DNA of 45,627 bases from Phoronis australis (taxonomy: Eukaryota > Animalia > Phoronida): the NCBI GenBank assembly GCA_002633005.1, contig NMRA01000932.1:49704-95330 (forward strand), written 5' to 3'. Below, piece by piece: positions 11,989-45,627 of the stretch. The notes below the pieces were generated by a model. The model worked only from the letters and a program-made list of their open reading frames with translations. It did not search any database and had not been told where the DNA came from. Positions within the stretch are counted from its first letter, which is position 1. Each line of letters starts with the position of its first letter. The position numbers and the translations under genes were made by a program.

Positions 11989-12051
11989 CTAGGTTAAAGG
12001 TCACACGATGTAAACATAACCTTAGAATCACGGGAGATAATTCAACTACCA

Positions 12052-12112: not shown

Positions 12113-12130
12113 AGCCTAAACTACACAGTA

Positions 12131-19369: not shown

Positions 19370-21050
19370 AGTGGGGAATGCCACCCGATTTAATTAGTCT
19401 TTTTTACCGTCTTGATTGGTCTATATTCACATCGCCTCTTATACGGTCGATCGACCTCACCTTGCCGAGAAGTGTCGCGTTAACCTGTGAGGAAGGTGAG
19501 AAGCGACGCAGCGCCGTCAGTGGTTCGTCTGCAGAGTGAATGCTGCTATATTGCGGTGCATCGGTTCCCGCTTGTCCGAACCATGAAGCTGCGAGGAAAG
19601 CGGGTATATCGTTTTTTCGACTTCCTTGAGAGCGAAAATGCTTAGGAAGTGGCTCGCGGTAGTGAAGAATGAAAGGTACGCTGTTAATAGCAAATTTGAG
19701 GCAGCCGAAACATCTCCGTGTGTGTGGCCGGCATTTCGTCGACAGTGATTTCTCTGACGAATTCCGGCTTACCAAAGAACTATCCATACGTTCCGTTGCA
19801 TATGCATGTTGACGGCTCTCTCTAGTATTTTTTGATTAGTGTATTCCGGTTCGAACTGATAGCCTGCGAAACCTAACGATTCGACTCGTGAAGTCTTCGT
19901 CGGATGCGCTCTTGATTAAGTCGGGATTGGCGCCGTGAAGACGTTTATTATTCTGCGTTCTGTTTCAAAATGATTTATTCTCATCCTAAAATGATCATAA
20001 CCAATGCAATTTGTAATGCCTTGGAGTGCTCGGGAGTGCAAATGTTTTGAGAAGCCAGCAATGAATAAACCACTGCGTTACCGGCTTTTGATGCCGGCAA
20101 CAAAGGTAATTGACCGGGCACCGAGGCCGTGTGAGTGAGCGCATGCTAATTCCCAGTGTTTGCTGACAGAAGGCTGTTGTGAAACAATTACTCGATTTTA
20201 TATGCTATGGTCACATGTTAGGGAAATCTTTATTTAGAAATGCAAATACATTATTCAAATCATTGTTACTGTACAACCTTTGCCCTGACGGTCTGTGGAA
20301 GGGGAACCCGACTTCGCGGCCCATGGCCGACGACAAGTAGATTTTCAGTTTCGTGGCTAATTCACATAATTAATTACGTGCACATTTATCTCTTTGGCTC
20401 ACTAGTATAGTCTTTTTGTCAGGAGGTTTAGTTTCCAACTGGTTTATGTTCGTGCCAGACCCGGCGGCAGCGACGGGCCTGATCGGGTTCCGAGCCACCG
20501 ACTGGCCGGGATAACAAGCGTTTTGTGTGTTTAGAACTAAAAAATCACAAGTATAAACAACACAGATCCAGGTTCTCCTGTCTGTATTTCATAGAGAATA
20601 ATTTGAATTTATCTCCGAACAGACCCCAAACTCCTGCTACGGACCTTGGTAAATTGGCCTGCCCGCGAACTTTGTAGGCTAGGGTGTGTCCAAATACCAG
20701 TAAATCCGTAACTGCGAAATAAAACAACACGTTTTTATAAGAACTGGGGGTATTTTTAAGGGTTTTACATCGAAGTTTGATGATTTATTGGTGTTAAACG
20801 ATGAATTCAAGCGATTAAGCTGACAACACCACTAACCCATGTTGTGAACTGCTGAACAGACTGCGTGTGAAACCAATTACGTCATTGGATAAGTTCAACA
20901 CAACTATTATTAAAATCTCTTGGTCTATTTACACCGAATTCTAGTCAGGTGTCAGGTAACGCAACCGAACCTGCCGTTATCGAGTAGAACTACTCCATAA
21001 GGCTAAATTGATACAAAGTAGGTTGTTTTTTGGGTGGCATTCTCACTCCT
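19370..21050 (+). mobile_element. Kolobok-like DNA transposon deletion derivative, copy 1
   Basis: TIR GAATGCCACCC / GGGTGGCATTC, right end followed by TTAA; degenerate THAP fragment on + (19540 to about 19770: C..ACPN..GISFFRLP*..LRKWL..HLRVCGRHFVDSDF); convergent GYQFEPEY fragment on - (about 19815-19876); colinear with 27907-29003 apart from an extra segment at about 20351-20943. Confidence 0.75.
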
Positions 21051-24900: not shown

Positions 24901-27900
24901 GAACACGAACCTTAAACTGTTATTGAATGCAACAGTACCTACCTTGTTATATTTTTCTCTCACCCCGGCTACCAGCACCTTTGTACTTCTTGGAACTTTT
25001 GTATTTGTCAACATGATACGCAACTTGGGGACTCTCTCAAGTGGCTTGATGGAGCCGTTGCAAAATACTAAAGCACCACCTGTAGGCAAATAAAACAATT
25101 ACGCTGACCATGAGCATTTTACCATGATGTTTTTTATTCTTATTACCACTTGAGTTGCCTTTCTTAAAAGGTACACCATGGATTTCCATTTCACAGACAG
25201 TCCCAGCCTCATTTTTATGGAAAGTTTCCGTTACAAGGGACCAAGGGACAGTTGTTTTTTACAAGGTCCCACTGAATGTTTAAATAGGTCAGAAAACTGT
25301 AAAAATTCAGGATTTTATACCGTATGTGCTGACAGAGTTGTCTATCCCTGACGGCTTGCCATGAATTATAACTTCTGACTGAAAAGCCCAGTCGTTTATG
25401 AGCTTTCGGTGTTCGTCTGACCACTGGTTACCATCAGAATTATCACCTGCAATGAACTACATGCATTATGTTGCCAACAAATTGAATTAAAATACCGGAA
25501 AGCAACCAACAAAATCCACTTGGTCAATGGCGTAATAGGGCAGATCAGTCAAAAACACTTTGATACAGATAAACCCTTAGAAAAATTCCAAACTAAGACA
25601 GCTTTGCCACAATACATCTCTGAAATGGGTTATCAGATTCTTAGGAAACTTTCAGAAAGTATGTCTCATGCATCATTCCCCATAACGTTTTTCTACTGAT
25701 TTCAAAGCATTATTCTCAAAGTTGTGGTAATTTTTAACAACTCAGTTTTCAAGAAATGAATTTGAATTCGCAAGTGTTTGACCAAGACATGCTGTAATGC
25801 AATGCCAATTTTCAAAAAAGTACTTTCTGGGCTTGAAACGAATTGACCATTAGTGTTTGCTTGAGATCATGCTGGATACATAAACTAAGAAAATGAATTG
25901 CAAAGGGAGAAGACAGCATTTTGAGCTTGGTCTCACTATCACTAGTGAACAGTCTCACTACCATTTAATGAACAGTCTCACCAGCACTAATGAACAGTCT
26001 CCCAACCACTAATGAACAGTCTCACACGCACTAATGAACAGCCTCACTGATGAACAGTCTCACAAGCACTAATGAACAGCCTCACTAATGAACAGGCTCA
26101 CTAATGAACAGCCTCACAAACACTAATGAACAGTCTCACAAGCACTAATGAACAGTCTCACCAGCACTAATGAACAGTCAGTTGTTTACAAGCTCAGAAA
26201 TATGAAGTTTGATCTTAATTAACAAGCAGAGAAACATGGCTAACTCATGTTCATTATCTCAACTGCTGCTTGACTTCTCAGCTTTTCCTACCTATGTGTT
26301 GATTCATTGGTATAGTCTTGGAATGTAAGAGCAGACTAGCAGCTAAGCAGACAGAGAAAGCAGCAGACGAGCCTAAACCAGCACTGGTTGGTAGACTGGA
26401 GCAGACGTTTATTTCAAGTGGTTGAAAACTGGAAGACAAAGTCACAGACTAGTATCAACAGTTGACAAAACAATTCTTAAGTTGAAACGTTTACAATAAC
26501 AGAAGAACTCTAGAATGGAAAACCAATCAAGTAGAGCAGGCAGTTACTGGTATTTTACCATTACATAATTTCTGCACTCAGGAAGAACTGACAATTTGTA
26601 ATTTTTAAGAATAATCTCATGAAATTTCACGCCATGACCTGAAATTGTACGTGCCTTATCTCAATCAATAATGAACGGTCAGTACCTGCAGTCCAATTCT
26701 ATAATCATGGTAAGTGGCCTAAATTGAAACTTGTTTTTGACAGAAACCATGAGTTTAAATGTCGCTTTAGTTAGTGTACAACAGTTAGTATTAAGTAGGC
26801 AAACAAGAGCAGAACCTTTTGATAGCTGAAGTTCAGCAGCCTTACACACAACATTGAAATGCCATCCACACACAGACTTGCCCTGACAAGTTACGCTAGG
26901 TTTGGAGGCTATCTGGACTTTAGTTAAACGAGTACAACTTGCCCCACTTGTGACAACTTACTCCACCTTATTGAGGTTGGGTACTTTGTTCTAGGGTAAC
27001 TTTCGCCACTTCTAATCGCTGTGTGGCCACAAACGTGGTGCAAAGTAGTAATTATCAGCTGCGCGCTTGCATAGTTACATACATATAAGGTCAATACCCT
27101 GAACTCCCACCATTTTTGTGAAGGTACACAAGTGCAGAGCGACAACTTATGCCTTGCACCAGTTATTGGATATACGCGTGTAAATGCTTTGCTTAAAGTG
27201 GAGCAAGTTGCACAAGTGCAACTTGTTGTAGGGTAAGTCTGTGTGTGGGTGGGACTTACCCATCAGTGATGTATAGATATAGATACAAGAAAGACACAAT
27301 AGCCAAGCTTTTTGTGTCACAGTTATCCGCAATACCAGCAATGCTTTTCAAGTGTGTAATAACACCCTCATCAACTCTGTCAGGTTTGGTATTCTTACCT
27401 GAAAAACATTAGAGAATAAATAGAAATGAAAAACCATCTAAGAAGTTTATCATTTCTGTAAAGACTGCGGTAATAATTCGCAGCAAAGGAGATAGCCTTT
27501 GCTTTGAACATAGGACAAAGTACTGACAATTTCAGCAATCATTTATGCACTACAATGGAAGAATTATCCACAAGACAGTTTGTTGTACTCTTACACATAG
27601 GAAGAAGTGATTTGACTTTCTGTTCAATCTCTGGCAGGCTCCATGATATATTCACCCCTATGTCTGGCAAAGTCAAAATAAGTAGGTTTCCAGTGGCAGG
27701 CTTAAGTCTCAAGAAGGTCCTCAAGTTAAGGCTTGATGCTAGCGCCATCTGCAAAAAGGAAACATACAAGCATATGTCACTTTAATTTACAACAGCAGGA
27801 TTACACGGTATCCGCCTCCACAGGCCTGAACAGTGGTGTGCCGTAATGTACAGACGTACAACCACCACATCCATTTATAGTATATCACATTCTGGTTAAG

Positions 27901-29188
27901 ACTTAAAGGAGAATACCACCCGATTTAGTTAGTCTTTTTTGCCATCTTAATCGGTCTATATCCACATCGCCTCGCATACGGTCGACCTTAACTTGCCAAG
28001 AGGTGTCGCGTTAATCTGTGAGGAAAGTGAGAAACGACGCTAGCGACGTCAGTGGTTCATATGCAGAGTGAATGCCGCTATGTTGCGGTGCAATGTTACC
28101 GCTTGTCCGAACTAAGCAGCTGCGAGGAAAGCGGGTATATCGTTTTTTTTTTACTTCCTCAAGAGTCCGAAATGCTTAGGAAGTGGCTCATGGTAATGAA
28201 GAATGAAATGTACGCTGTAAATAGCAAGTATGAGGCCGTGAAGCATCTCCGTGTCTGTGGCCTGCAGACGTCGACAGTGCCTGACGAATGCCGGCTTACC
28301 AAACAACTCCATACGTTCCGTTGTCTGAGCTTGTTCACGGCACCTCTCTAGTATTTCTTCATCACTGTATTCCTGTTCGAAATGATAGTCTGTAAAACTT
28401 AACGATCCACCTACGAAGTCGGGACTGATGAGCTCTAGCTTGTCCTAAGACGGGATTGCGAGTTGCCATCGTTGGCGTTTATTACTGAGCGTTCTGTTTC
28501 AAAATGAATTATTCTCACCCTAACCAATACTTATATAAAACTGAAATGAAGTCTGTCTCATTAGATGCAATTTGTAATACCTTTGGAGTGTTCGTGAGTG
28601 CAAATGATTTGACAAGCCACCAATGAATAAATCACTGCGTTACCGGCTTTAGGTGCAATAAAACTAATTGATGGGACACCTAGGCCGTGTGAGCACATGC
28701 TAATTTAGTGTTTGCTGGCAGAAACTGTTGTGAAACAACTCGATATCCATCCCATGGCCAGGTGTTAGGGAAATCTTTATTTATATTTACATTATTAAAA
28801 TAATGATTGTCAATGTACAACTTCTGCATTGACGGTGCTGTGGCCAAAGCGGAGCCTGAATTAGTTCGCGGCCCCCGACGAGTAAGTAGATTTGCAGTTG
28901 TCAGGTGTCAGGTAGCGCAACCGTACGTGTCGTTATGGAGTAGAACAACTCGATCTAAATTCAGTTGATACAAATTAGGTTGTTTTTTGGGTGGCATGCT
29001 CCTTTAAGTTCAAAACAGACCGGCAAAACAATGCCAATGGCTAACTACTGACACTAGTCGGACACTGAGACTAACTCAAGAACGATTACCTTTCCGTATA
29101 CAACAGAATGTTCTCCATGAAGAATAACTTTTCCCGGAGCCGACACAACAATCTCTTCATTATTCGCAGGAATCTGGCTGCCCATCAT
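21928..29188 (-). CDS. MVK: Mevalonate kinase, complete, 9 coding exons, about 410 aa
   Basis: Exons (minus): 29188-29090, 27748-27595, 27398-27260, 26428-26292, 25446-25321, 25079-24943, 23343-23230, 22865-22712, 22100-21928; all GT-AG and phase-consistent, 1233 nt. Motifs [69 protein letters not shown]. Confidence 0.96.
24581..24753. repeat. 43-bp tandem repeat x4
   Basis: AATGGGGTGCTATCTCCATCACAACTGCATGGTTAATACTTTA, identical copies. Confidence 0.95.
25930..26180. repeat. Variable minisatellite (units of about 15-22 bp)
   Basis: Core CACTAATGAACAG(T/C)CTCAC repeated about 13 times. Confidence 0.9.
26864..27250. mobile_element. MITE family 'GTCCACACACAG', copy A
   Basis: Ends CCACACAGACTTGCCC / GGGTAAGTCTGTGTGTGG; interior similar, in reverse, to 43080-43145 and to the 31694 array. 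Confidence 0.6.
27907..29003 (+). mobile_element. Kolobok-like DNA transposon deletion derivative, copy 2, in an MVK intron
   Basis: TTAA at 27903-27906 and 29004-29007; TIR AGGAGAATACCACCC / GGGTGGCATGCTCCT; THAP-like ORF 28052-28351 ([22 protein letters not shown]); [13 protein letters not shown] on the minus strand at about 28350-28390. Confidence 0.8.
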
Positions 29189-29500
29189 AGCTTCGAAATG
29201 ACACCTGAGGTATAAGCAAGTGGGGTGATAAATATGACCTGATTTTTAGTTCAGAGGTCATGGGAATATTCTACTTTAGAAATATTTTGGGGGGGTTAGT
29301 TTTAAGTCGAACAAGTTTTTGTATAACTCTGAGCACAGTTTTGTTTATTAAAAAGTTAAATAATTTTTAAAAATCCGTTGATTTATAATTTTCTTTTATA
29401 TTATAGCTAGTATCATCGAGCACTGTTATTTTTTAAGAATAATTACTAACTGTGCTTACCTCTCAAGATTGTGATAGGCAATAATAACAAAGATGGCGGC
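29189..29500. promoter_or_regulatory. MVK/MMAB bidirectional promoter region with SRE-1 and YY1 motifs
   Basis: Start codons 304 bp apart and divergent; ATCACCCCAC (minus) at 29220-29229; AAGATGGCGGC over the MMAB ATG; candidate MVK 5'UTR intron on the minus strand from donor GAG|GTAAGC (29460/29459) to acceptor CCTCAG|G (29205/29204). Confidence 0.7.
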
Positions 29501-32500
29501 CTCCAGGTTCGGAAAAGTTTGCTCGTCTTTCATGAAAAGACCAACAGTTTTTAACTGGTTACATGTCTTGAAACCAAGCACATTGCATATTTGCAACCAC
29601 ACGCGACACTCAAGGTTATTTCTATCACCAGCTATTAGTCATTTACTGTATGATGGTCAAATAGCGGTGTCCAAGTTAGTTAGGCCTACCGTTAAACGCG
29701 AGCCGAGCCATGCGTGGATGAGCCTAGCCTTAGCGCGAAGCTGTATATACTATATAGCCAGCCAGCTAGCTGTATGAAGACTATCGTCAAAATACAGCAA
29801 GGGGTAATTGTTAACAATATGACGACATTGACTTACACATATGATTTTGGTATCATTCAATTCCTTGCAACATTTTCTTTCCAGAAACAAACTGAAATTT
29901 CTCCTACCCCGTTCCCTAGTATTTTATCTTGAAATTTCTGCTCGCACTATTTCCCAATACTTGGTAGTAATACCGCCATATTGAATGGAAAGAGTCACCC
30001 GATGGTCAAAAACTAAACTACTCTACCGACTTCTGCAGATCGTCGCTCTCCATAAAGTCAAATTGACAGAGACCCCAGCCCGGGTTACGGTCCCAAGGGT
30101 TCAGATTCGATCTTATGGTGACTCTGGTACCAGTACACATCTGCTAGCAAGAATCCACGAAAAAAGCGGAAGTTGTTTTTGAGGTCCAAATTGGTGAAAA
30201 ATGTATCACTTCAGACAATTTCGTGAAAAAATGGTCAAATGATTATAATTCTAAAAAAATGAAAAAGGTGAAATGCTGCTAATTGTTCCTCCATATTATG
30301 TCAGTAATGTCAGGAAAACTTTAGCGGGAATCTCGTGCGGACAAACACCATTCAGAATCGATGATACTGTTTCATTCATTAACAACAGATGTCGCTGTAA
30401 TCTTGAGTTGACAATCGGGAAATAGTGCGAACCGAAATTCGACGATAAAATACGGAGGAAATGTGGTAGGGGATACATTCATTTATTTTTGGAAAGACAA
30501 CGTTGCAAGGAATCGAACGATACCAAAACATGTGTAGGTCAATGTCGTCATATTGTAAACAAATACCCAGCAAGGTACCACTGTGTGTTTTTCTTCCATA
30601 GACCCCGAAATTGCACACAGCCAGGGTAGTTCTGCTCGTCAAGTGGCCGGGAAACCTGTATCAACATTTAGAGCTAAAGACCGGATGGGGTGCATGTAAA
30701 ATCTGGCAATCAAAGGACACTCGCCTTGCTCGTTACAGCTGTTTAAGTGGAAAGCAATCTAATAAACGTCATTTTCTTGCGTAATCCTCCACATATTCTA
30801 ACAAAGAAAAGTTATGTCGTCATATTGAAAACAGTGCGCTCATGACACACGCATGCGCCATTTCCTAAATTTTTGCGACATCTCTCAGGAGATGATGATA
30901 GCTTGGCAGCAGCAAAGTTTCTTCTGAAATTCGTTTTTTTTTTGGTATCAAAATTCTAAAGACGTATAATGAAGTGAAACCAGTTCCGATAATTTGTCGG
31001 GACGTGTATGCAACCTCGTGAAAGAACAACAGTTGATTGAAGAATCGGCGAAAAAAGAAACTGGCCAATAGGTGGCACAATATTTCATGGCTCCGAAAGC
31101 CATCGCTAAAGATCGCTCCACAACTTAAGCAGCAGAATGCCATTTTTTGCAACACGGTTAAATAATTTAGTTTACTCAAGGAAGGCTAGTTTTTAATGAC
31201 ACTAATTTTGTGTCAGATTTCATCTTGCCACTTTTTAGTACCCACATCGGTTCAAAGCTGTATATTTCAAGAATACAACTTTGTACCAAGGCTAAGCTGT
31301 ATACTAAATGTTGTATTTTGACAACAGTCTTCATACAGCTATCTAGCTGACTAGGATGAGCAGAGACTCTGAGAATAAGATTCACAACCAACCTCTATTA
31401 GCTTGGCAGTCTGGTGAATAACTTTATTGGTCAATCAAGGATGTGACCAACTTAAATCAGCTGAGCATAAAAAGCATGCTTTGGCATGAGATAAGCTCCC
31501 GTTGTTCCCCAAACTCTAATGCTAATAGAGGCTGGATGTGAAACTGAGTGAGAGTCTGCCTGTCTGATTGTCCACATGCGTGTACTTGTTACCAAGATAT
31601 GTGCTGTTCACACTACGAGTTATCCTAGAACAAGTTACTCCTGGAAAAAATTCTCACTAGGTTTGGTAGAAGAGTGGACGGAACTTGCACTGGGACAACT
31701 TATCCCACTTCATCAAGGTGGCTAACTTGTCACATGTGTGACAACTTACCCCATTTCATCAAGGTGGCTAACTTGTCACATGTGTGACAACTTACCCCAT
31801 TTCATCAAGGTAGGGCAACTTGTCACATGTGTGACAACTTACCCCATTTCATCAAGGTGGCTAACTTGTCACATGTGTGACAACTTACCCCATTTCATCA
31901 AGGTAGGGCAACTTGTCACATGTGTGACAACTTACCCCATTTCATCAAGGTGGCTAACTTGTCACATGTGTGACAACTTACCCCATTTCATCAAGGTAGG
32001 GCAACTTGTCACATGTGTGACAACTTACCCCATTTCATCAAGGTGGCTAACTTGTCACATGTGTGACAACTTACCCCATTTCATCAAGGTAGGGCAACTT
32101 GTCACATGTGTGACAACTTACCCCATTTCATCAAGGTGGCTAACTTGTCACATGTGTGACAACTTACCCCATTTCATCAAGGTAGGGCAACTTGTCACAT
32201 GTGTGACAACTTACCCCATTTCATCAAGGTGGCTAACTTGTCACATGTGTGACAACTTACCCCATTTCATCAAGGTAGGGCAACTTGTCCTAGTGCCAGT
32301 CTTAGTGTGGACACAATAATGCAGACAAGGCAGAAATAATTACCACCTGTGCAATTGCTCAGTTACACACATAGTGTTTTCTAATCATTTTTGCACCATA
32401 TTTGTCACATGATGTAAGATTTGTAAGGTGGCCCCTCGGCTAAATGAGGGCAAGCTGCTCTAGGGCAAGTTACTGTAGGGCATGTTGCTCTAGTGCAACT

Positions 32501-35500
32501 GGTGCTGTGGACACGATTGTACAGACCTGTTATTCTGGGAATGCCAGGCTTTTTGATTCATTGAGTCTGCCTTACTTTGACTTTGGCACAGTTCATATTG
32601 TACAGCTGTCATCATTAAACATATGATTATCATAGATTGATAGATTAATATGGTATTTCATACAAGTATTTATTTTGTATATCGTTTAAATTTATTGGTG
32701 AGTTTCGCGAACTGAAGATTTCAGAGAGTATGATATTCATATGAAGGATTGAATGCCTGGGCATTTTTTCCAGTGTGTTATTTATTAATGAACTTGATCT
32801 GTTTCAGTTCGTCAGCAGAAAAGAAGAGTGGACCAAAAATTTACACGAAGACTGGAGATAAAGGTTAGTAGTATGCTTTCACATATTGTTAGTTCTTGTG
32901 TTTGTGACTGTGTGTAGAAATATTGCCAATAGGACAAAATTCACAACATCACACCAAAACTTCACTACATTAAGAATTCCAATTCGCTTTATTTACAGGA
33001 ACCTCGGGAACCTTCACTGGTGAACGACGATCTAAGGATGACGTAATATTTGAGGCCCTTGGTGCTACTGATGAGCTCTCTTCAAATGTCGGGTAAGTCT
33101 TCTCACCCACTGAACAGGAACTCTTTTTTAAGGGTGCTTGTTCCATTCTTTTGACCAATTTTGAACACAGAAAGTGTTTTGTCAATATTGAGAGACATCA
33201 CTGAAATACTGGAAACAGGTCTACTTGTATTTGCACTTTTTACTAAACAATTCGCAAAAGGTGAAATTCCATGACGTCCAATGGTAGCAGTTATTTTGGT
33301 GGTGTTTCACCAGAAATAACTGAAAATTCAATATTCTGTTTATTTTGAAAACATTTGATTGTTGAAAGTCAAGAGCATTATTTAGGAATTAGTTAAAACT
33401 AGATTCGCTTGTGGTCAAATTTCATTTATGAACAGATTAAGTTTTTATCTGAAAAGAAATGGAAAGAGTATCTTTAAGAGCAGAATCATTTTTAGGTTCT
33501 AAGTTTCTTTGTAGTCTTATCAAAATTATTGCCAAAATTGTCATTTTTAAAGTATTCAAAGGCTGGTTACCATTGTGCAAATTATGGAAACATTACCAAA
33601 TATTGTTTAATGACATCTACACACTGCAAACAATGCTAGGAGTGTACTAAAGCTATCTTAAGCTTTACTTTCGATGGAAAAATTTGACACAACAGAATTT
33701 CACTTGTCAACCATATTGTGTGTTTAATAAATGGAGAATTACTGTACAATAACCGTCCAAAATGCTAATTTACTGGCCAATCATGTGCTTTCAATGTTGC
33801 TGAACAGAGCCTAATAACCACAAATCATGTGTTTTCACTGGAATGTAAGCTTCTTATGGTTAGAAGGTAAATCTGTTGTTTGATTTGGTGTACTAGGACT
33901 TGAAAGTGTTAGACCTTCAAATAAAATGTGTAACCTTCAAGTAAAATATGTGACCTTCAAGTAAAGTGTGTGATCTTCATGTAAAATATGTGGCCTTCAA
34001 GTAAAATGTGTGATGTTGAAGTAAAATGTGTAACCTTCTTGTAAAATTTCATCTTCAAGTAAAGTGTGTGATCTTCAAGTAGTGTGCTATGTTCTAGTAA
34101 AACTTATTGACTGACACTCATCAAAAAAAAAACGAATTCAAAACATGACTATTGTACTAAGTATGTGTGTCCAAATGTGGTAACTGGGAACAAACGTTTG
34201 TTTTTCTTGTTATTATCTGGTGGACGTTGGAAAGGTTTTCCTAAATTTTGAGCAGCTGAAGTACGGGCATGTATTTAAACATTAAACGCGTCTCTATAGA
34301 ATTGGTAGTGTTGCATACATATTTTAACCCTTAGTAATGTATTTGTCAGTTTCAAATTGCTTCTCAGTGTGTAAGCAGTGCAGTACACAGTATACCCCAA
34401 CATAATTGGACAAAATGAAGTGGAGTTCAGTGACATAGTATCTATACCTCATTACTGAGAATGACCAGACATGAAGCTGAATGTTTGTGATTTTTGCTGT
34501 TTCCGCTGGTATTCACCATGACAGGGAAGTGTCTAATCCGATTTTTTAGCCTATACTGTGTGAAAACAATCATTTTTGAAATTGAATGTTGGTTAGAGAA
34601 GAAGCTATTTTTAGAATAGTTGTCAACTGGGGCTGTCACTTTTATACTTTTATTTCAGACTCGCCCTCTCATTTTGTCAGATTTCATCTTTAGCAGAAAA
34701 GTTGGAAAAGGTAAGTGCTGATGTGTGCCTCAGTTTCTTCTTAGTGAAGTTCTATAGAGAAATGGATTTTCCAAGATAATACAAAGAGACGAAATTCAGA
34801 GAATCTGATTTTTCCATGTAATTTGAGGTTTGGCAGGGATAGCATAATTTCAATAATTTGGGGCTTATTTACCTAAACTTAAGAATGTATTCCATCAAAT
34901 TCCACGATTATGGCCACAGATCAATCATCATGCAGCTGACATGATCAAACAGTTGTTCATTCTTTTTCTTATTTTGAGGAGCACCAAATGTGGCTTGCAG
35001 TAAGATATTGATAAAACAAAGCCGTGACGTAATTCATCACAAAAAGTAAGGCAATTCCCATTTCATTTTGATTATGAGCCCACCTATTCATATGTAGTGA
35101 TCAACAGTCAAATATTTTTATAAGCACTATAAATCCTTATCCCCGGATACAAGCATACTTTCTAACCCCCTATGTGGGGTACCTTCTATTCAATGATAAC
35201 CTCCAAACTGGAGTAAAATAAAAATGTCTCAGATGTGTAGGTTGTTCATAACTCTGGAGCTAAAGTTGAGACCGTTCCATCACAGAATGAACTCCCACTA
35301 ATCCTCTGCTGAAGACTTTGTGTCACGTTTTTCCCCGTGTGTGGGTGGGCGCAGGTTGTTACAGACCGGTGCTAATAGCTTTCGGTGCGAAGATTGACTG
35401 AAGACTGGTTCGAGTTAATCCTTTATTAATCCCGACCGTATACGTTCACAAGCCTACTCAAACAAAACGTCCGACGTAATGTCTGTTTATGCTCCAGCCA

Positions 35501-37384
35501 GTGCTGCGAAGCCGTGACTTGTATTGAACTTCTGAGATACTTCCAGCAACTGTTACACTCGATTCAATAACCTGCTGTCTCTATAGCTGGCTCTCTATTG
35601 ACTATCGCTGTAACTGCTGATTCTGCAACTCAACTGTAGTTCTCCTGATTAACTTACTTGAACTCACTTGATCTCTTGACTTGATCTTCTTGGACTCAAC
35701 TGACTTAAACTGACTAACACAAACCCGTGCTTGTGTATTTATAGCCTAACGCATTGTTCTGGAACTTTTCATCAATTCAAGCACATACCAGAACTTTCTG
35801 GAACCTACCCAATCATTCTACAAACATGTACTAGTCTCTAGAATATTCCAGACTTCATCAATCACTGTCATGCTACAGAATTCTAGAAAGTTCCACACTA
35901 TACTGTAGTAAACAAATTACATCATCACTGTTCTGACCTCAGTCTTCTAGAAAGTTCCATACTATTCTGTAGTAAACAAATTACATCATCATTGTACTTA
36001 ACTCAGGGGTCATGCAAATCAAACTGAATAACAAAACAAAACAATACAACTAATAATACTGTCAGACTATATTCTGACACTTTGAATTGGGTGCCTGTTA
36101 AGAAACATGTGATGTTTTGGTTCTCTGTCTTCAAACGCTTCAGGAACACAAAATACCTTTTGCAATTGCTTGTGGTTATGACCTGTATCTAGAAGCGTGC
36201 ATGCAACTGTCCAAAACTGGTTTGACTTAATAACGTTTTTTCGCAGTGTAGTATGATTTTTAAAGCCATTGTTTACTACTTACAAGAATGTTTGTCATAT
36301 GACCCTTACCATTATAAGAGTGGTATTAAGTAGTTTGTTACTCAGGTTATGAATGATCGTTAGTTTTGGGAAATATCGAGATTAACTACTTGAGATCAGG
36401 CGCAATAATTTTTTCTGTCATGGAGGATGAATTTAAATGCCGAGCCTGGTCTTGAACACTAATGAACTATCGGATCTTGCCTAGTGCAAAAATTTCTCAG
36501 TTGGGCGTGGAATGAGTCGAGACCAATTTTATAGCGGTAAGTGGCCTAAATCAAACGAAGGCAGGTTTGTAAGAGAGAGTTTCCATCATGGAATTTTTAT
36601 GTCTCTGCATTCTGCTCATTCCAGATCTTGTCGATATTATTGGATGCTGGTGCTGCCATAGCAACCCCAAATAGTTCGGCACGAGATGCCCATAAAAGTA
36701 TGTATTGGTAGACTTTGTTGTACAGTAATAGTGCCAATGGCTGTGAACAACAATGGTTGTCTGTCGTCAGCCTAAGATTTCTGGTTGGTGTGCTTGATGT
36801 GTGCTTGTTGAGATTTTTCAAAAAGTGTATAACTGTTTCTCATATACCAATTCGTTCCTGTTGATGCTTTTAACCCTGAGGTGAAACCTCTGCATAGACA
36901 GTATTAAGGTGAACAGTGTGTCAATATAGCTGTTACTGATTAGTTGCTGCTGTCTTTTGAACTGAGGAAGGAATAAGGTGAGGCCTTTTTGAATAAGGTG
37001 AGGCCTTTTTGAATAAGGTGAGGCCTTTTTGAATAAGGTGAGGCCTTTTTTATACTGATTAAGCAGCTTAAGTCGAAAGTTTTTTGACGGAAAGTGTGGA
37101 TTTCATGCTGCTTGCAATTATCACAGAAAGTCTAGTCATGGAATAAGACAAGTTTTAAGACGTTTGAAAATGTTTTCATAATGAAGGTGTTTGGGCTTAA
37201 CAAATTTCTTTGTTCTTATTTTGTTTCACTTGTTTGGCCTGCTGATGTGGCTTAAAGCTCTCATGTTTATGTTTTATTGGTTGCAGAGAGGACACTTTTT
37301 AGTGACAGCCATGTAACGGAGCTGGAGAGGTGGATTGATGAGATGGACAAGTCGTTACCTACATTGAAAAACTTTATATTACCT
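29493..37384 (+). CDS. MMAB: Cob(I)alamin adenosyltransferase, mitochondrial; exons 1-6 only, 3' exons not found in window
   Basis: Exons 29493-29614 (basic transit-peptide-like; donor uncertain), 32808-32863 ([11 protein letters not shown]), 32999-33092 ([25 protein letters not shown]), 34659-34710, 36625-36697 (DAGAAIATP), 37287-37384 ([16 protein letters not shown]); all phase-consistent. Confidence 0.93.
29720..31350. repeat. Nested inverted repeat pair in MMAB intron 1
   Basis: About 29760-29800 pairs with about 31310-31350 (TAGCTGTATGAAGACT..GTCAAAATACA); about 29808-29958 pairs with about 30413-30563 (ACAATATGACGACATTGAC..TTCCTTGCAAC..CGCACTATTTCCC). Confidence 0.7.
31694..32289. repeat. 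Higher-order tandem repeat: alternating 46/47-bp monomers (93-bp dimer x6) inside a MITE copy (about 31603-32315)
   Basis: GACAACTTACCCCATTTCATCAAGGT[GGCT|AGGGC]AACTTGTCACATGTGT, 13 monomers. Confidence 0.95.
33914..34086. repeat. Degenerate 20-bp tandem repeat, about 9 copies
   Basis: Consensus CCTTCAAGTAAAATGTGTGA. Confidence 0.85.
35321..36079 (-). mobile_element. Solo LTR (759 bp) of an LTR retrotransposon in MMAB intron 4, antisense
   Basis: TGTCA...TGACA termini; 5-bp target duplication CTTTG at 35316-35320 and 36080-36084; on the minus strand TATAAATA (35736-35743) precedes AATAAA (35422-35427), giving U3-R-U5 order. Confidence 0.88.
35736..35958 (-). promoter_or_regulatory. TATA box plus heat-shock element cluster in the LTR U3
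   Basis: Perfect 3-unit HSEs at 35790-35804, 35880-35894 and 35944-35958; imperfect ones at 35756-35770 and 35835-35854. Confidence 0.8.
36971..37050. repeat. 20-bp tandem repeat x4
   Basis: GAATAAGGTGAGGCCTTTTT, identical copies. Confidence 0.95.
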
Positions 37385-38202
37385 GTAAGTTTATGTTTAG
37401 TGAGCAGAGTGAAATGATCTTTTGGTGAATTATAGCCTTTGGACTCCATGTTTTTATGAAATGTTGAACTGGGCATTGGGTGGAATGAGCAATAAAATAA
37501 AAGGTTAATTTATATTTTGCTGGGGACTTGTCATGTTGGTTCTGGTCTATGTTTATTTTTTTTGAAAATCGCGTCTCTGGTGTGGTATTTTTTAGTTGAT
37601 CGCTTTCTCAAAAAATGCAATCAAACTGAGAAGAGCAAAACTGATCCATGATTTTTCCTCATCACTTGGCAGATGATGGTAGTTCATTTCAGTCCTTGTT
37701 TATGTGCCTTTGTGTAGCTTTCTAAAACTACATGGCCTTGGCTGAAATTGATGCTAGCAGGCATTTTCAGTTGGTGAACACATGTCTCAAAATTCATTGG
37801 GGTGCACACCAGAACCAAGTGTGCTTTTGGCCTCATCACCTACTGTCAGACAGCATTTTCTCGTCCATGTCATTGTAGTCTGCTCATCTATCCTGATCCC
37901 AAACACTGCTTCTCCTGCGTCCTGTGATCACTTGCCCCAATAGCTGGTAACTTACCAGCAGGACAGCAACTGATACAACCATGATTGTATTGGTAGCAGC
38001 TGACAATGTATCTACTGCTGTAAAATGCATTCCAGTGGTTATCTTCAGAGCTTGGAATTTTCTGCGGAAACGCGGATTTCCGCTTTTTTCAAATGTTCTG
38101 TCCGCGCATTTTATTATGCGCCCACATATTTATATGTGGACGCATTATGCCGTCATCTCCGTCCGTCCGTCTGTCCATCCGGGCGGCGTCCGGCGTCCGC
38201 AG

Positions 38203-38496
38203 ATGGATTCCTAAGTAAGATGTCTGGAAGGAGTGATAAGATGGGATGGATTCCTAAGTAAGATGTCTGAAGGAGTGATAAGATGGGATGGATTCCTAAG
38301 TAAGATGTCTGGAAGGAGTGATAAGATGGGATGGATTCTTAAGTAAGATGTATGGAGGGAGTGATAAGATGGGATGGATTCCTAAGTAAGATGTCTGAAG
38401 GAGTGATAAGATGGGATGGATTCCTAAGTAAGATGTCTGAAGGAGTGATAAGATGGGATGGATTCCTAAGTAAGATGTCTGGAAGGAGTGATAAGA
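38203..38496. repeat. 42/43-bp tandem repeat, about 7 copies
   Basis: ATGGATTCCTAAGTAAGATGTCT(G)GAAGGAGTGATAAGATGGG. Confidence 0.95.
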
Positions 38497-39067
38497 TTCA
38501 GTGTCAGATTTCCATTTTTTAACCACATTGTCAGCATTATATTTATGTGCAAGTGAGGGTTTACTGTGTCAGTGGACATTTTCAGTAAGCCTGCTTTGGT
38601 CAAACTAACATGAGGTAAACATTCATTCACGTATCACCACTTGCCCGTGGGGTGCAATTGAGAACTCGAAATTCACTAGATGGTACTAGTGAAACTGGTG
38701 TCTTACTTGTAGAAGTACCTGCATTCTGATCACTTTGAGTGGACTGTTTATGCCCCACTGATGAATTACTCTCAATCTATTTAGATGTATCTACATTTAA
38801 TTAGCACCACCCAGTGAATATTGTGAATCCATAAAGTGCTCAAGAACATTATTCTTCTTTATTTCTGGCAATAATACAACTCATGGGTCTGATCACTAAA
38901 ATCTTACTTGCATTCAATATCACCAAAGTTCATTACTGCCACGAATATGAACATGCTGCAAAAAGGTTTTAGTGGAGAGTAAAAGTTTAGCGTAAATTTG
39001 TGCATCAGCAAGAAACGTACAACTTGAAAGTTTTGTTGGCGATTACGTGACTGATGTAACCATTAAA

Positions 39068-39310
39068 TAATGGCTGTATGACTATTGGTTACTAGCTTTT
39101 GGAGGGTGGTGGATAGTAATGGCTGTATGACTATTGGTTACTAGCTTTTGGAGGGTGATGGATAGTAATGGCTGTATTACTATTGTTTACTAGCTTTTGG
39201 AGGGTGATGGATAGTAATGGCTGTATTACTATTGGTTACTAGCTTTTGGAGGGTGATGGATAGTAATGGCTGTATGACTATTGGTTACTAGCTTCTGGAA
39301 GGTGATGGAT
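39068..39310. repeat. 49-bp tandem repeat x5
   Basis: TAATGGCTGTATGACTATTGGTTACTAGCTTTTGGAGGGTGATGGATAG. Confidence 0.95.
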
Positions 39311-39437
39311 GGATAGGATTTTGACTTTGTGAATGGCAACTAAATTTGTCGAAACAGCACTAAAATTGCTTTTATTTTAAAACAGCTTTATGGTGGTGTG
39401 AATCACTCTCATGAATTACACAAGTTAGAAAAGTGTC

Positions 39438-39643
39438 AGTTTGTTCTTCTCTATATAGTCACGTGGCTGTCACCTCTCTACACACAGAGTTTGTTCTTCT
39501 CTATATAGTCACGTGGCTGTCACCTCTCTACACACAGAGTTTGTTCTTCTCTATATAGTCACATGGTTGTCACCTCTCTACACACAGAGTTTGTTCTTCT
39601 CTATATAGTCACGTGGCTGTCACCTCTCTACACACAGAGTTTG
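39438..39643. repeat. 50-bp tandem repeat x4
   Basis: AGTTTGTTCTTCTCTATATAGTCACGTGGCTGTCACCTCTCTACACACAG. Confidence 0.95.
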
Positions 39644-39707
39644 ATCCACTCCACTTAAATACTGTCCTTGTTGGTTAATTGTAATCTGGCTGTTGACTGT
39701 TTTATAG

Positions 39708-42700
39708 GCTAGAAGACAATCGGAAGTTATTTGAAGAGTTAAAGGCTGAATATGGTGACCATTTGCCCGTGTATTCATCTTGGTTACAAGCCATTGATGG
39801 TCACAAGGTACTTGATTAATTCTACTTTATATTACAGTTAAGGACCTTACATTTATCACATTAGGTGGTTTCATACTCCAGTGAACAGTTCTGGCCAGGA
39901 GTTCTGTAGAGATAGATTTCAAGAGATCATTGATTTTTATTGAATGTAAAACTGTGCCCAGCACAAAGAAAACTCGCAACTGGCAAGATTGGAAAGATCT
40001 GAGATCTCTAATCCAAAATTGGTAGTACCTCAAATATCCAATGGGTTTCTCAGTGCGAGGCAGCAATTGATATGCCACTTTCGATGCTCCGTGGATGAAA
40101 TTCTGCAATTTGGAAGTTAGGTCAAAAACAGCAAAGCTGGTTCTGGTTTTTACCCCAACTCTGTGCTCACCATTAAAAAATATCCTCCTTTATTTCTTTC
40201 TGCCAAGGTTTCGTGTTTTGTTTTGGAAAGCTGTAAAAAGGCGCATTAACAAGGTTAAGCAAGGTTTGAAACTGATTTGCCAAGCAACGAATAAAAAAAT
40301 CCCACATCATATTTCCTTGTACCGGGGAGATTTCTGTTATTGAAAAAAGTGAGCAACTAAAAATACAGCACTGCCAACTCAATTTTCAAAAAAAGAACAT
40401 AGACCAGAATCAGTTAGGGCTGTTCCAGCAAAATCTGTATGGGAGGGGGGAAGGCACTTTTATTTCGTACCCACCGCCCATATTTTTCATTTATTTCTCC
40501 GACCCATGACCCATAATTTTTTTATTATTTTTATAGATTGAAATATAAAATCCAATACTTGCAAACAAATTGCCTCCAGGAGGACCTGTTAAGAACTTAG
40601 ATGATTGACAGACAAGAACTAGTTGTCTTGTCCAATATTGTCAAAAACTAAAGTAGCCTGTGAGCAATACTTTTGGCAGCCACCAGGTGTCTCTGTTCAC
40701 CATGTGTCTATAATTTCAATGAACATTTTTTCAATTATAAGGATCTATGAATCTCAAACTGTCTCCACGAACTCTTTTATACTTCTATGTCAAGTGAATA
40801 TTGGAACTTGTTTATCTTACTCCTCATACTTTTTATTTAAAAATCATCAATTTTCTTATATGTGTTAACACCAGTTTAGTGTTGCATAACTTTTCAATTC
40901 AATAGGACTGCAGACTAACAGTTGGCTCAAATCAAGTTGCCCATGACTTGATTAATGGCTTAGTGAAGATATTGCACTCTGTTCACTGGCAATATGGGCT
41001 TTTTTGTATTGGGATAAGTTAGGATGTATGCCAATTGCATTTATTTTTTAGTTTTGACGCTGAAGTAACCAACTTGTCAACATTAACAGGTCAAAAAATA
41101 CCACCCCGCATTTTTAATGCATCACTTCTTACAGGAACGACCACCCATAATTTGAGTTTTTTTCTGAAGACCACCACCCATGAATTTTTATTTCTACTGC
41201 CATTCACCCCTCCCACACGGATTTTACTGGAACAGCCCTTATGCTTTTTTGCCCAAACCGTTTTTCTTGGAAAATCATTGTGAAATACTGACAGTTTTAG
41301 TGTTGCCGTAAATGCGTTCCTTTAATTTTTTCTAACTGCAGGTCATGCAAATAAAAATTGAAATCCCAAAAAAGTTTAAAGTACCCTTACTTGAAAATGG
41401 CACAATGATCGGTCAAGGTGGCAGGCATAACGTTTTTGCGTTACAGGTTTCATGAACTTACCAGAAGCTCGGATTTCCCAGAAATGATAGACTAGATTCT
41501 TTTGCCTTGGATTGGTCCGAATCTATAATACCTTTGTACAATCAGACAATAAGACCTATGAGACCTCATTTCACCAAGCGGCAAGCGACTGCAAAAATAA
41601 AACATTTTGATGCCTGTGTGTTCTGGAAAACTTCAAAATTATGTAGACGAGTTTGTTGGAAAACAAAGCACCGGAAAATGTTGTGTCTTGAAGATATGCT
41701 TAGTAAGTTGAGCGACACAATTTTGAGGTCTTGTTGAGCATGTGAAGTTCAGATTGGAACGGCCACAGACAATCTGAGGTCATAGTGGGTGAGCTGGTAC
41801 TTGCCAAATCGGTTGCTGTAAAAGGAACAAAGTAAAAACAAATACTTCTCATTTATTTAGTCTTCAAACTGCAAAGTTTGGTGACTGGAACAAAAAATTA
41901 CATTATGGTATTTTTCAGTGTTCGATGGATATCAAAAGTGTTTGTTCAACTACTAGACACTAAAATCTCAACGTCGTTGGATGTAATATGGATGACAAGC
42001 AACATTTCATATTTTGTGAAACATATATTGTGCAAAATTATATGACATTTCCCTTTTCAAGTTCTGGTCCATGGCTTCCATGAAACACAGTACTAAATGT
42101 GGGCATTCACTGCAATGTTGGAAACCCGTAGAAATGAAAAAGGGTCATTTTCGGCAATTTATTTTGTTGAAAGTTAGTGAGGTTTTGCCGTATTTTGCTG
42201 AGAACTCTAAATAGCATTGGGATGCCTAAGATGATGGATGATTTGTGTTATTTTTGAAATTTTGTTTGATTTAACAATATTATGTAATCATGGTGTTGTT
42301 TACAGGATCGGTTGAAGAGGCTCCCTGAAGTTATAGCCGCTGCCCGAGAAGTTGTCTCCCGTGTCGACCAGGGAGTACTAGCTACGTATTATGGAACAAA
42401 GAATAACGACAGTAGACCTGATGCAGCATTAGTCAAAATGTAAGCTTTGTTTCCTTAATCTAAGAACCATTTGCTTTCTAGTTATGTAGGGCCTTATCCA
42501 AAAGTCATTTAGCAAAATCTTTACACAAAAAATGTAGAATTTAACTTGGTAAAAGAATATATTTTCTGAAAGCAGAAATTCCGTAGCATTTGATTTTTGA
42601 CTTAATAATGTCATTAGTTGGTACACTCAGCGACACAACAGGATCAACGACATGACCGAATTTCATAATATTCAAGATGAAATGTCAAAAATGCTTTACA

Positions 42701-45285
42701 GTTTTCTAAATTATCGTTTGGTTTTTGGCATTAAAAAATCATAAATATCACATAAGTCTTATTTTTGATAGCTCCTCATGCAAAAGTGGAAGATTGTAAA
42801 CACAATTCCTAACAACCTTTTGGTTAATAGTGTGCATAAAGCATTAGTCCCGTCCACACACAGCCTACCCTAGTGCAACTAGTGCACTAGTGCAACTTAC
42901 CAGACTTTTAAGTGGAGCGTCCACAACATAGGCAGAAATTGCCGCTCTGTGCATGACAAAGAACACCTGATACGAGTATGACACGCAAAAGAAAACCCGT
43001 CTGTATGTAACCACAGCTGATATTTACTTCTGCCTTGCCCCATGTTTGCGGTCATACACAAATTAGAAGTGGCAAAAATTGCCCTAGAACAAGTTACCCC
43101 ACCTCGATAAGGTGGAGTAAGTTGTCACAAGCGGGGTAAGTTGGACAAATTTAAAGAGCATCCCCAAAGTGTCCAAACCTTGCGACAATTTGCTTCAGGA
43201 GTAACTTGTTCTATGGTAAGTCTGTGTGTGGACAACACTATAGTGTCTGTGTGTTGACGCCACTGTAGTGTCTGTGTGTGGACGACACTGTAGTGTCTGT
43301 GTGTGGACGACACTGTAGTGTCTGTGTGAGGACAACACTATAGTGTCTGTGTGTGGACGACACTGTAGTGTCTGTGTGAGGACAACACTATAGTGTCTGT
43401 GTGTGGACGACACTGTAGTGTCTGTGTGAGGACAACACTATAGTGTCTGTGTGTGGACAACACTATAGTGTCTGTGTGTGGACGACACTGTAGTGTCTGT
43501 GTGAGGACAACACTATAGTGTCTGTGTGTGGACGACACTGTAGTGTCTGTGTGTGGACGACACTATAGTGTCTGTGTGAGGACAACACTATAGTGTCTGT
43601 GTGTGGACGACACTGTAGTGTCTGTGTGTGGATGACACTGTAGTGTCTGTGTGTGGACGACACTGTAGTGTCTGTGTGTGGACGACACTGTAGTGTCTGT
43701 GTGTGGACGACACTGTAGTGTCTGTGTGTTGATGCCACTATAGTGTCTGACAGTTTCATGTGAATTCATTTCTGACATATGATGCTCTGAAGTTGGCTAA
43801 AATTGAACATTTTTCTAGGAACCCACCTAAGCTTAACAAAGGCTTGTATCACAATCATAAGTTAGGATAGATGCGGGACTATTATAAACACAGTGTAGCT
43901 TTGTAAAGTCCTTCATTTTGACGCTGTGCATTTTGTTGTTACGAAGTCTTAATCCATTTTGCTTCAACATATAAACGACTACCTATCTTGTCAAATCTAC
44001 TTGCAAAATGGAATGTTAATTTTGTATATCACGTCTATTCCAAGTTTGGACAGTGCTACTATTCGTCCTTGTTAAGATGACATAAATGGTGAGTAAGTAT
44101 CTAGATTTTGGGCCAGATTCATATACATGAATTATTTTTCACTGCTTCAAACTGAATAATTTTTACTGTGTTTTTGGCATGTTATCATGTTTTTCTCACC
44201 ATTTTTGTGCCATCTGTTTAGTGAAATGGACAAAAACAAGACTAGCCTCATTGACGCGTTGGTGCGACTGGGATGTGCACAGGCTGACATCTTGCAGGAA
44301 AAGTTAAAAGGCAATGGGGGTGGTGACACTGTAGAAGGGGAGATAACTCTGAAGACTCTGGATGAGACATTAGCTGAGCTACAGAAGTGGACAGATATAA
44401 ATGACTCCAAGGTGAATCATCATTTTTGTGATTAATTGTAATCAATTAATTTTTAAAAGCCACGCGAGGTTTAAAATACTGGCTTTTTATGGCCATAAAA
44501 CATTAATTCTATAAATACGTTTATTAGTATATATACTTAGAATTTCAGAAATTCAACTATAAGTAATAATTCGGTATTTTCTTTAAAAGTCGCTTACTGA
44601 AAGTCTGCATTGCTTCATTCATGCGGTGACCTTTAGTGTAGAATGTTTGGCATAGCAATCAAGAAGTTTTTAACCTTTGCCGTCCAAAGCAGTTGGTTTA
44701 CTGGTGCTCATATGCCAGTTTGACTAAAGGATTGCTTCGTGTGTTTGCCAGCCAGTTGAATGACTTCATTGTCTGTCATTTTATCCTGACCACCCTGCTC
44801 GTGAAGGTTTTTGTCCAGAATGTGATGACTCACATCTGTGTGCTACACATGTTACTGTTTTGGGTTTTAATTCAAATTGAATTTAGTTCATGTAGTGCAG
44901 AAATTGGATAGCTTAAATAGAAAAAACGATTTTACTTGAAATAATTTCTTTTCACTTCCTTATTTATTCCCACACGAACATATTAAGCAGAGCTTGTAAA
45001 CTGCCTCACTGAAGCCTGTGTTTAACCGAAACTGCAAATCTCAGTGTTGCGTGGAACATACCAATGCCATGTTTGTAGAACACAAGTCAGTTCATGTGGG
45101 CGTGTACAGGTCTATCTACCTTTTTTGATGTGCTGTACTCTACTCGGGTGTCATGTCCGTTACAGGTATTCCAGTTTAGTGTTCGTCATGCCAAAGCTTA
45201 CCAACATCATGGACGGGCACTGAAGATGCTTCTTAAACAACAAGAAGACAAACCCACCAAGGAACAGGAGCGGAAGGTGATAGCT
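39708..45285 (+). CDS. TPP2: Tripeptidyl-peptidase II, C-terminal exons only (partial)
   Basis: Exons 39708-39807 (LFEELKAEYGDHLPVY), 42306-42439 (DRLKRLPEVIAAAREVVSRVDQ..RPDAA), 44222-44411 (EMDKNKTSLIDALVRLGCAQAD..KWTD) and 45166-45285 (HGRALK..KPTKE); phase-consistent and colinear with the recalled vertebrate TPP2 C-terminus ([43 protein letters not shown]). Confidence 0.9.
40417..41238. mobile_element. PIF/Harbinger-type (Tourist-like) MITE
   Basis: TIR of about 30 bp GGGCTGTTCCAGCAAAATCTGTATGGGAGGGG / CCCCTCCCACACGGATTTTACTGGAACAGCCC; TTA duplication at 40414-40416 and 41239-41241. Confidence 0.85.
42650..42845 (+). repeat. Interspersed repeat, copy 2 (see 6053-6270)
   Basis: Colinear similarity; ends where the next MITE begins. 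Confidence 0.7.
42845..43240. mobile_element. MITE family 'GTCCACACACAG', copy C
   Basis: TAGTCCCGTCCACACACAGCCTACCCTAG / CTATGGTAAGTCTGTGTGTGGACAACACTA. Confidence 0.7.
43220..43750. repeat. 25-bp tandem repeat, about 21 copies, derived from the MITE terminus
   Basis: GTCTGTGTG(T/A)GGAC(G/A)ACACT(G/A)TAGT. Confidence 0.95.
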
Positions 45286-45627
45286 GTAAGTTGCATCATA
45301 AAATTGTTTGTTCTAGTTATTAATACAATTCCTCATAGTCCAATGATCATTCAGAACACCTTGAGCCTGGTAGGCTTAAATTTTCCCTCAGAGGCGAACG
45401 TTGTGTGCGCATGTGGAGTCTTTAGTCATATGGAATGTCATGCGACCTTTGAACTACAGAATGATTGGCTGTGTTACTGTACTTCCCACATGCACAGGTA
45501 ACGTTCACCTCCAAGAGGAAATTTTGAGACTGTGAAATTACCTGTTTTTTAGTTACTCTGAATGTCCAAAGCAGTATCTCACCTGGAGCTGTGTACATGT
45601 AGCATACCTCCTGAATTTTCTTACTAT

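Follow-up and report, generated by a model that had tools for sequence, protein, structure and literature searches.

HSE-bearing LTR retrotransposons (HSE, heat shock element) of the Ty3/Mdg4 group have been described in the flatworm Macrostomum lignano, where they include Mlig-id115 (Mag), id36 and id55 (CsRN1), and id38 (Gmr1/Osvaldo) (PMC12801592). As that report describes them, these families comprise 4-20 clustered copies with known internal domains and are induced approximately 250-fold by heat; mutation of the HSEs abolished the heat response of one LTR, and two of the six HSE-bearing families were not heat-induced. According to the report, ONSEN was the first validated instance of LTR elements capturing HSEs and Macrostomum is the second, with more expected to follow. 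ONSEN (ATCOPIA78) is a Ty1/Copia element of Brassicaceae whose LTR contains HSEs that recruit the host heat-shock factor (HSF) (PMC13602373, PMC8376061, PMC12801592). A similar case is provided by the Caenorhabditis Helitrons, a transposon family from which many of the HSEs in a genome derive: they are described as holding 61.4% of the HSEs of C. elegans and as able to draw nearby genes into the heat-shock response (PMC6927752).

The element from Phoronis australis that we describe here resembles the Macrostomum LTRs, as reported, in being an animal LTR whose TATA box is preceded upstream by canonical HSEs, defined by the same pattern, with three perfect and two imperfect HSEs compared with one to four per LTR in Macrostomum. 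The two cases are set apart by their descriptions: the Phoronis family apparently numbers in the hundreds to thousands, most copies being solo as judged from their flanks, and it is known from its LTR sequence alone, with a predicted heat response. Like ONSEN it has HSEs in the LTR, although direct binding by HSF is shown for ONSEN, a Copia element of plants, whereas the Phoronis element comes from an animal and has putative HSF sites. The Helitrons, as described, belong to the rolling-circle DNA transposons and bear their HSEs in tandem arrays, whereas the Phoronis copies carry a full cassette of HSEs, TATA box, initiator-like motif, and AATAAA; an effect on neighboring genes has been shown for the former and is only a candidate for the latter (PMC6927752). 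We found no publication tied to this family in the openly accessible literature.

The window, that is, the whole stretch of 45.6 kb that we analyzed, contains a 759-bp minus-strand element at 35321-36079 with the termini TGTCA (35321-35325) and TGACA (36075-36079), flanked on the left (35316-35320) and right (36080-36084) by the 5-bp target-site duplication CTTTG; these coordinates agree with the element that an earlier sequence-only reading had delimited. Its inverted ends of 5 bp fit the short TG..CA inverted ends of a solo LTR, and its 25-base flanks contain host sequence and the duplication alone, with no PBS or PPT, matching the solo state. The TATA box and AATAAA, both on the minus strand, follow the U3-R-U5 order at the motif level. 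No ORF longer than 52 codons lies within the 759 bp, and the window contains neither a second copy of the element nor a tRNA gene. We consider it probable that the element is a solo LTR of a high-copy LTR retrotransposon family whose copies have retained an HSE cluster, through which HSF is predicted to drive transcription of the element under heat or stress. The solo LTR likely arose when the two ends of such a retrotransposon recombined with each other. A reverse transcriptase (PF00078) at 14465-15658 was considered as a partner and rejected, being 20 kb away with no such repeat adjoining it and no link to the element. We also rejected a retrozyme or Penelope pseudo-LTR, since no hammerhead ribozyme was found and the absence of any Rfam match (E<=1, 35200-36700) gives no sign of a ribozyme-bearing end of either kind, although minimal ribozymes can escape such detection.

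Five HSE arrays lie within 215 bp of the TATA box TATAAATA (35736-35743, minus strand, starting at 35743). Moving away from the TATA box, these are the imperfect HSE a (35757-35769; 8 of 9 core bases), array b (35786-35808), which has a perfect triplet at 35791-35803 with an imperfect unit on either side, the imperfect four-unit array c (35836-35853), and the perfect three-unit HSEs d (35881-35893) and e (35945-35957). HSEs d and e occupy the first and second units of a 64-bp tandem duplication (35876-36003; units 88% identical) that doubled one HSE, and as copies from a single duplication they are not independent. Initiator-like motifs at 35708-35717 on the minus strand lie approximately 28-32 bp behind the TATA box, and on the initiator consensus that we assume, transcription presumably starts near 35711-35715. 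The predicted poly(A) signal, AATAAA at 35422-35427 on the minus strand, is near the R/U5 border. The pattern scan thus recovered both the three perfect and two imperfect U3 HSEs that had been claimed and the AATAAA placed downstream of them (at 35427). None of 2000 dinucleotide shuffles of the element reached three perfect triplets (mean, 0.0065), and none of 500 reached the eight triplets with at most one mismatch that were observed.

The five perfect HSE triplets of the window comprise the three in the element and two in the promoter of an hsp70 gene (9815-11728, minus strand). The 120 best-scoring relatives of this hsp70 share 68-82% identity with it (up to 79% for those close to full length) and come mostly from molluscs, annelids, and arthropods; in a tree of 101 sequences it fell on a long, unsupported branch (0.48), and a search with an MVK exon yielded 21 hits from mixed eukaryotes. 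That promoter (11850-11987, minus strand) has its TATA box at 11857-11850, perfect HSEs at 11870 and 11975, and an imperfect HSE at 11924; the sequence-only reading likewise gave hsp70 fewer HSEs than the element. The nearest HSE of the element had been placed 12 bp from the TATA box, compared with 11 bp in hsp70. It does lie 12 bp away (13 bp from the core edge) but is imperfect, and the nearest perfect triplet is at 47 bp; in hsp70, by contrast, the HSE next to the TATA box is a perfect one. We rejected the idea that the LTR captured the hsp70 promoter, since the homology is limited to 11-18-base HSE words (E>=0.098). It was likely within the LTR that the HSEs originated and increased in number, in part through the 64-bp duplication. 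HSF trimers would bind arrays a to e and activate the TATA/initiator promoter on the minus strand, a model based on how the motifs are arranged and on the precedents of Macrostomum and ONSEN, and the predicted trigger is heat or another protein-damaging stress.

Other members of the family, whose existence had been predicted, were revealed by read depth, sharp ends, and diverse flanks. Among reads at least 85% alike to the element, which were the only ones aligned, the summed contig depth was 4,400-32,000 on the element and 5-10 in most flank bins, with a median ratio of approximately 2,600; the element/flank ratio ranged from 600 to 4,500, a ratio of summed contig depths and not a copy number. 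The depth edges were sharp at 35321 and 36079, and 86 contigs ran past the left end and 33 past the right, with a flank agreement of just 0.36-0.42; the depth step and the loose ends at both positions are those of dispersed copies with fixed ends and differing flanks. In X11, the last five letters of the majority flank before 35321 were identical to the first five of the flank after 36079, which points to a putative second solo copy, the source of the dominant flanks, with its own 5-bp duplication. The copy in the window has approximately 12 near-private differences and lacks a fourth perfect array-b unit that is common in other copies. No empty-site allele was present among the joints listed (15 of 98 in the first read set and 7 of 7 in the second, which is without organism A DNA).

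Pieces related to the whole length of the element were also present in a second organism (organism B, X6). A single contig of organism B ran past 35321 into 2 letters and then 18 letters that we take to resemble the complement of the 3' end of tRNA-Arg. By eye, the majority flanks of organism A agreed with this junction at 16 (X9), 11 (X10), 6 (X11), and 8 (X1) of 30 positions, and X9 alone is clearly above chance. No polypurine tract was visible among the loose ends listed at 36079. In a full-length element, for which this one contig offers a primer-site-like junction, the heat-driven start would supply the genomic RNA. A 5-bp duplication and an Arg primer are known from both a Mag-lineage element and non-autonomous elements of Culex (PMC3286476), so these features do not decide among Ty3/Gypsy, BEL/Pao, and Ty1/Copia.

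No internal gag-pol region was recovered for the family, and six scans of viral, metagenome, and prokaryote contig collections gave no exact match to the element patterns; these collections are not expected to include this animal, so such blanks say little. The lack of an internal region in those scans, the very high copy number, and the mostly unrelated flanks at both ends would also suit a non-autonomous 759-bp mobile unit, either a MITE-like DNA element or one without a coding partner, that did not arise by LTR recombination. We regard such a unit as quite improbable: the inverted repeat at the termini spans just 5 bp, whereas approximately 10 bp or more is expected of a MITE; the TATA box, initiator-like motif, and AATAAA are in LTR order on one strand; the primer-site-like junction of the single contig is on the side expected of an LTR; and Rfam gave no match.

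The copies share their HSEs, as had been anticipated. We counted 45 distinct differing positions among those listed for two read sets, a listing beyond which a further 81 and 34 rows lie. None of the 45 hit any of the 49 HSE core bases that match the pattern, compared with 6 hits among 26 spacer bases (Fisher p=0.0011). Among the same listed differences, the core also differed from the other HSE-zone positions (p=0.015), and the comparison with the whole rest of the LTR (0/49 versus 44/705) was not significant (p=0.11). One listed difference falls on a mismatched HSE core base, and that change completes the unit; none of those listed affects the TATA box. The fourth perfect unit of array b is present in about half or more of the family reads, and one X7 contig has an insertion within this array. 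Some low-depth joints delete the TATA region or one unit of the 64-bp repeat, and our data suggest that a single-unit form of the repeat exists in some copies. The HSEs are likely maintained by selection that acts at the level of the element and not at the locus in which this copy resides. Since a heat-shock promoter layout is kept across copies, the family is likely switched on by heat, as in the flatworm and plants.

Three raw RNA runs (X9, X10, and X11), for which no treatment or genotype is stated, all contained RNA from both strands of the element, which is mostly as expected of copies carried in host transcripts. None of the three showed a start pile-up at the element or a fall in sense depth behind the AATAAA; the sense/antisense depth ratio increased behind the predicted start in all three (1.11 to 1.80, 0.90 to 1.33, and 0.61 to 0.83). 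In X11, one block of differences occurred in antisense reads only, a pattern that a single host transcript would give. The two-strand coverage, the missing pile-up, and this block could indicate that the solo LTR carries real motifs that are silenced or insufficient, that the family is not heat inducible, and that its RNA is host read-through; the two HSE-bearing Macrostomum families reported to be unresponsive to heat agree with this (PMC12801592). Such a silent family is unlikely in our judgment, however, because the listed differences affect spacers but leave the matching core bases intact, five arrays cluster near the TATA box, the RNA runs have no stated treatment, and the unresponsive Macrostomum families are reported to have carried just one HSE each (PMC12801592).

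The solo LTR lies in intron 4 of MMAB, between exon 4 (34659-34710, plus strand) and exon 5 (36624-36697, plus strand, start approximate), and is antisense to this gene, as the sequence-only reading had placed it; MVK is on the minus strand, head to head with MMAB. The same reading held that this copy could drive antisense transcription toward MMAB, which the RNA runs do not support: X9 contained antisense reads at 34674-34821 and 35044-35265 with a mean depth of 1-2, and the antisense depth at 34600-35288 was zero in X10 and X11. Those X9 reads, the orientation with intact promoter motifs, and the undiminished sense depth of the family behind AATAAA would accord with a co-opted or cis-acting copy, in which heat triggers antisense transcription across MMAB exons 4-1 in the direction of the promoter shared by MVK and MMAB, or in which the copy serves that promoter as an HSF enhancer, with a change in cobalamin or mevalonate gene output. 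We find this very unlikely, given the zero depth in two runs, the near-private differences and missing fourth unit of this copy, and a distance of approximately 6.2 kb from the predicted start to the MMAB start codon, with the AATAAA of the LTR and eight more on the same strand in between. The splice joint 34708>36623, found in X5 and X9, joins exon 4 to exon 5; with the intron thus still being spliced out, the copy is likely a passenger, and the claim of an effect on MMAB/MVK has little support at present.

The HSE-driven LTR is itself a known mechanism, reported from an invertebrate, Macrostomum lignano (PMC12801592), and from ONSEN; what is new may be its scale, with hundreds to thousands of copies compared with the 4-20 described for Macrostomum. 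The shuffle mean corresponds to a chance expectation of approximately 8.6 perfect triplets per Mb, or roughly 3,600 in the 422 Mb of X1 contigs. As a rough estimate, 600-4,500 copies with approximately three triplets each would have added 1,800-13,500 perfect HSEs. It is possible, and we propose it only tentatively, that one LTR family has dispersed complete heat-shock promoter cassettes, in numbers of hundreds to thousands, across the genomes of Phoronis and a relative, provides at least a third of the perfect HSEs, and rewires the heat-shock regulon between individuals as an LTR counterpart of the Caenorhabditis Helitrons, with the MMAB copy as a candidate site. The family would add an independent example of HSE-bearing LTRs in animals, apparently far more abundant than that described before. 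If heat induction is true, one could examine in a non-model invertebrate whether genes join the HSF regulon through solo LTRs, and test directly whether a retrotransposon family is awakened by marine heat waves.

The element antisense in intron 4 of MMAB begins with TGTCA at 35321 and ends with TGACA at 36079, and the sequence read on either side of its 759 bases is CTTTG; these coordinates and ends agree with the sequence-only reading. It contains no reading frame longer than 52 codons, and its terminal inverted repeat is limited to five bases. On the minus strand, five heat-shock element (HSE) arrays (35957 to 35757) are followed by a TATA box match (TATAAATA at 35743), by initiator-like motifs near 35711-35715, where the start is predicted, and by an AATAAA match at 35427. 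The termini, the duplication length, and this motif order fit those expected of an LTR.

Three of the five arrays contain perfect HSE triplets, and the three perfect and two imperfect HSEs and the downstream AATAAA that had been claimed were all located in the element. Only two other perfect triplets occur in the window, both in the hsp70 promoter, and none of 2000 shuffles of the element contained three. A single 64-bp tandem duplication accounts for two of these three triplets in the element. The reported distance of 12 bp between an HSE and the TATA box was also reproduced, but that array is imperfect and the closest perfect array lies at 47 bp. The hsp70 gene itself (9815-11728) is intronless and of the inducible type, with no close relative among its 120 best matches, suggesting that its animal lineage is thinly sampled. 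Since the homology of the LTR to the hsp70 promoter is limited to HSE words, capture of that promoter by the LTR is unlikely. Upstream of hsp70, a reverse-transcriptase frame at 14465-15658 (PF00078, E 9e-36) and the frames adjoining it (13772-16268) likely represent a broken LINE.

A junction in organism B bears on the retrotransposon parentage of the element. One contig of run X6 extends past 35321 by two letters and then, on the side expected for a primer-binding site, by 18 letters that appear similar to the complement of the 3' end of a tRNA-Arg. The majority flanks of organism A agreed with this contig, by eye, at 16, 11, 6, and 8 of 30 letters in X9, X10, X11, and X1, respectively, and organism A therefore supports the junction in one of four runs. 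A polypurine tract was not visible among the loose ends listed at 36079, and pattern scans of viral, metagenome, and prokaryote contigs, collections not expected to include the animal, yielded no long-flanked copy. A unit mobile without an LTR parent would accommodate the scan result; set beside the short terminal inverted repeat, the motif order, and the tRNA-like junction, we regard it as improbable. In the available text of PMC3286476, a 5-bp duplication with an Arg primer is found in both Mag-lineage and non-autonomous elements of Culex, and this combination is therefore not decisive for the clade.

Of 11 public runs, eight contain the window or part of it, from four studies (X1-X4 possibly being its source sample), and eight were compared with the element using reads or contigs at least 85% alike. 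In X1, the element reached a summed contig depth of 4,400-32,000, compared with 5-10 in most bins of the flanks (median ratio approximately 2,600, range 600-4,500), with steps at 35321 and 36079; because summed contig depth is no copy number, we take it to indicate copies in the hundreds to a few thousand. The contigs leaving the element (86 at the left end and 33 at the right) agreed in their flanks at only 0.36-0.42, and the many copies that the proposed family required are thus present at diverse loci. In X11, the same five letters are duplicated in the prevailing flanks of the two ends, as would be left by another solo copy at a different locus. Related pieces were present in organism B and in two marine metagenomes (X7 and X8). 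The window copy departs from nearly all others at approximately 12 listed positions and is therefore young but not new.

The differences among copies fall on at least 45 distinct positions within the element. None of those listed affected the 49 matching HSE core bases, whereas among the 26 bases of the spacers six were variable (Fisher p=0.0011), with array borders chosen by the analyst on the window copy; the core deficit gave p=0.015 against other HSE-zone positions and p=0.11 against the entire remaining element. One difference lies on a mismatched core base, where approximately half or more of the reads have a complete unit, and none of those listed lies in the TATA box or AATAAA. A repeat unit or the TATA region seems to be missing from some copies, and in one X7 contig the array at 35786-35808 is interrupted by an insertion. 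The HSEs are shared among copies, as had been anticipated, and intact cores beside variable spacers are the pattern expected, as indirect evidence, from selection for HSF binding. That the motifs are present but silent we consider unlikely in view of the core-spacer pattern. The most probable reading, which we hold with fair confidence, is that the element is a solo LTR derived from a family of retrotransposons, in which the HSEs of the U3 would recruit HSF and heat would then drive transcription of the element itself. The anatomy, the abundance, and the retention of the motifs are observed, and the retrotransposon parent, HSF binding, and heat induction are predicted.

The RNA runs X9, X10, and X11 were stranded, as judged from MMAB exon reads; approximately one fifth of each was examined, and the treatment was not given. 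In the three runs, both strands of the family were represented in RNA, at depths from tens- to 150-fold, and read starts did not pile up anywhere, which mainly fits copies carried within host transcripts. The sense/antisense ratio rose behind the predicted start in all three (1.11 to 1.80, 0.90 to 1.33, and 0.61 to 0.83), which hints weakly that some transcription is driven by the LTR, and sense depth did not drop behind AATAAA. A 134-base skip without GT..AG ends (35465-35600), seen only in LTR-sense reads (13 in X9 and 18 in X10), probably reflects a deletion in a single expressed copy.

MMAB lies on the plus strand (exons at approximately 32836, 33061, 34659-34710, 36624, and 37322), and its exon 4-exon 5 junction was present in X5 contigs and seven X9 reads. 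A motif search of 37340-45627 found no exons past exon 6 (37322); the final ones may lie beyond the window end or be divergent. MVK, on the minus strand, is head to head with MMAB, their start codons approximately 305 bp apart (29188-29493), an arrangement known from vertebrates. Antisense flank reads at MMAB appeared in X9 only (34674-34821 and 35044-35265, mean depth 1-2) and were absent in X10 and X11, whose animals need not carry the insertion; the suggested antisense transcription into MMAB from the window copy is not supported by these data. The predicted start is approximately 6.2 kb from the MMAB start codon, with eight further AATAAA between them on the strand of the antisense RNA. 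A cis effect of this copy on MMAB or MVK would draw on the X9 reads and seems the least probable of the readings.

Other repeats are present in the window. Intron 4 of MMAB also contains a stretch of 41 bp (36515-36555), common to many loci (X1 depth approximately 1,000-2,500) with loose ends on both sides, that showed strand bias in X9 RNA and no Rfam match; it likely represents the conserved core of a different abundant repeat, for example a SINE. In intron 1 of MMAB, nested inverted repeats (29755-30568; arms 29802-29840/30530-30568 and 29845-29917/30456-30528) are likely a foldback or MITE element. Related elements at 26851-27257, 31601-32480, and 43030-43874, which have inverted ends and enclose tandem arrays of 46/47-bp and 25-bp units, are likely a MITE-like family with minisatellites. 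Another repeat, of approximately 1-1.6 kb, has two related copies (19368-20998 and 27903-28954; 84-93% alike in blocks) in or near MVK.

HSE-bearing transposable elements have precedents. The available text of PMC12801592 reports canonical HSEs in six of 137 LTR families of Macrostomum lignano, with four HSE families induced approximately 250-fold by heat and the response of one abolished by HSE mutation, and cites ONSEN as the case that had been validated before; in that of PMC6927752, Helitrons provide 61.4% of C. elegans HSEs. In its layout the element resembles the Macrostomum and ONSEN LTRs, and it is a candidate member of that group by heat response. In the literature searched, outside Repbase, Dfam, and subscription journals, no published account was tied to the family. 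The element is real and well-built, and likely a new example of a kind already known. The HSE families of Macrostomum have 4-20 copies according to PMC12801592, whereas contig depth suggests a far larger size for this family, and scale may be what distinguishes it.
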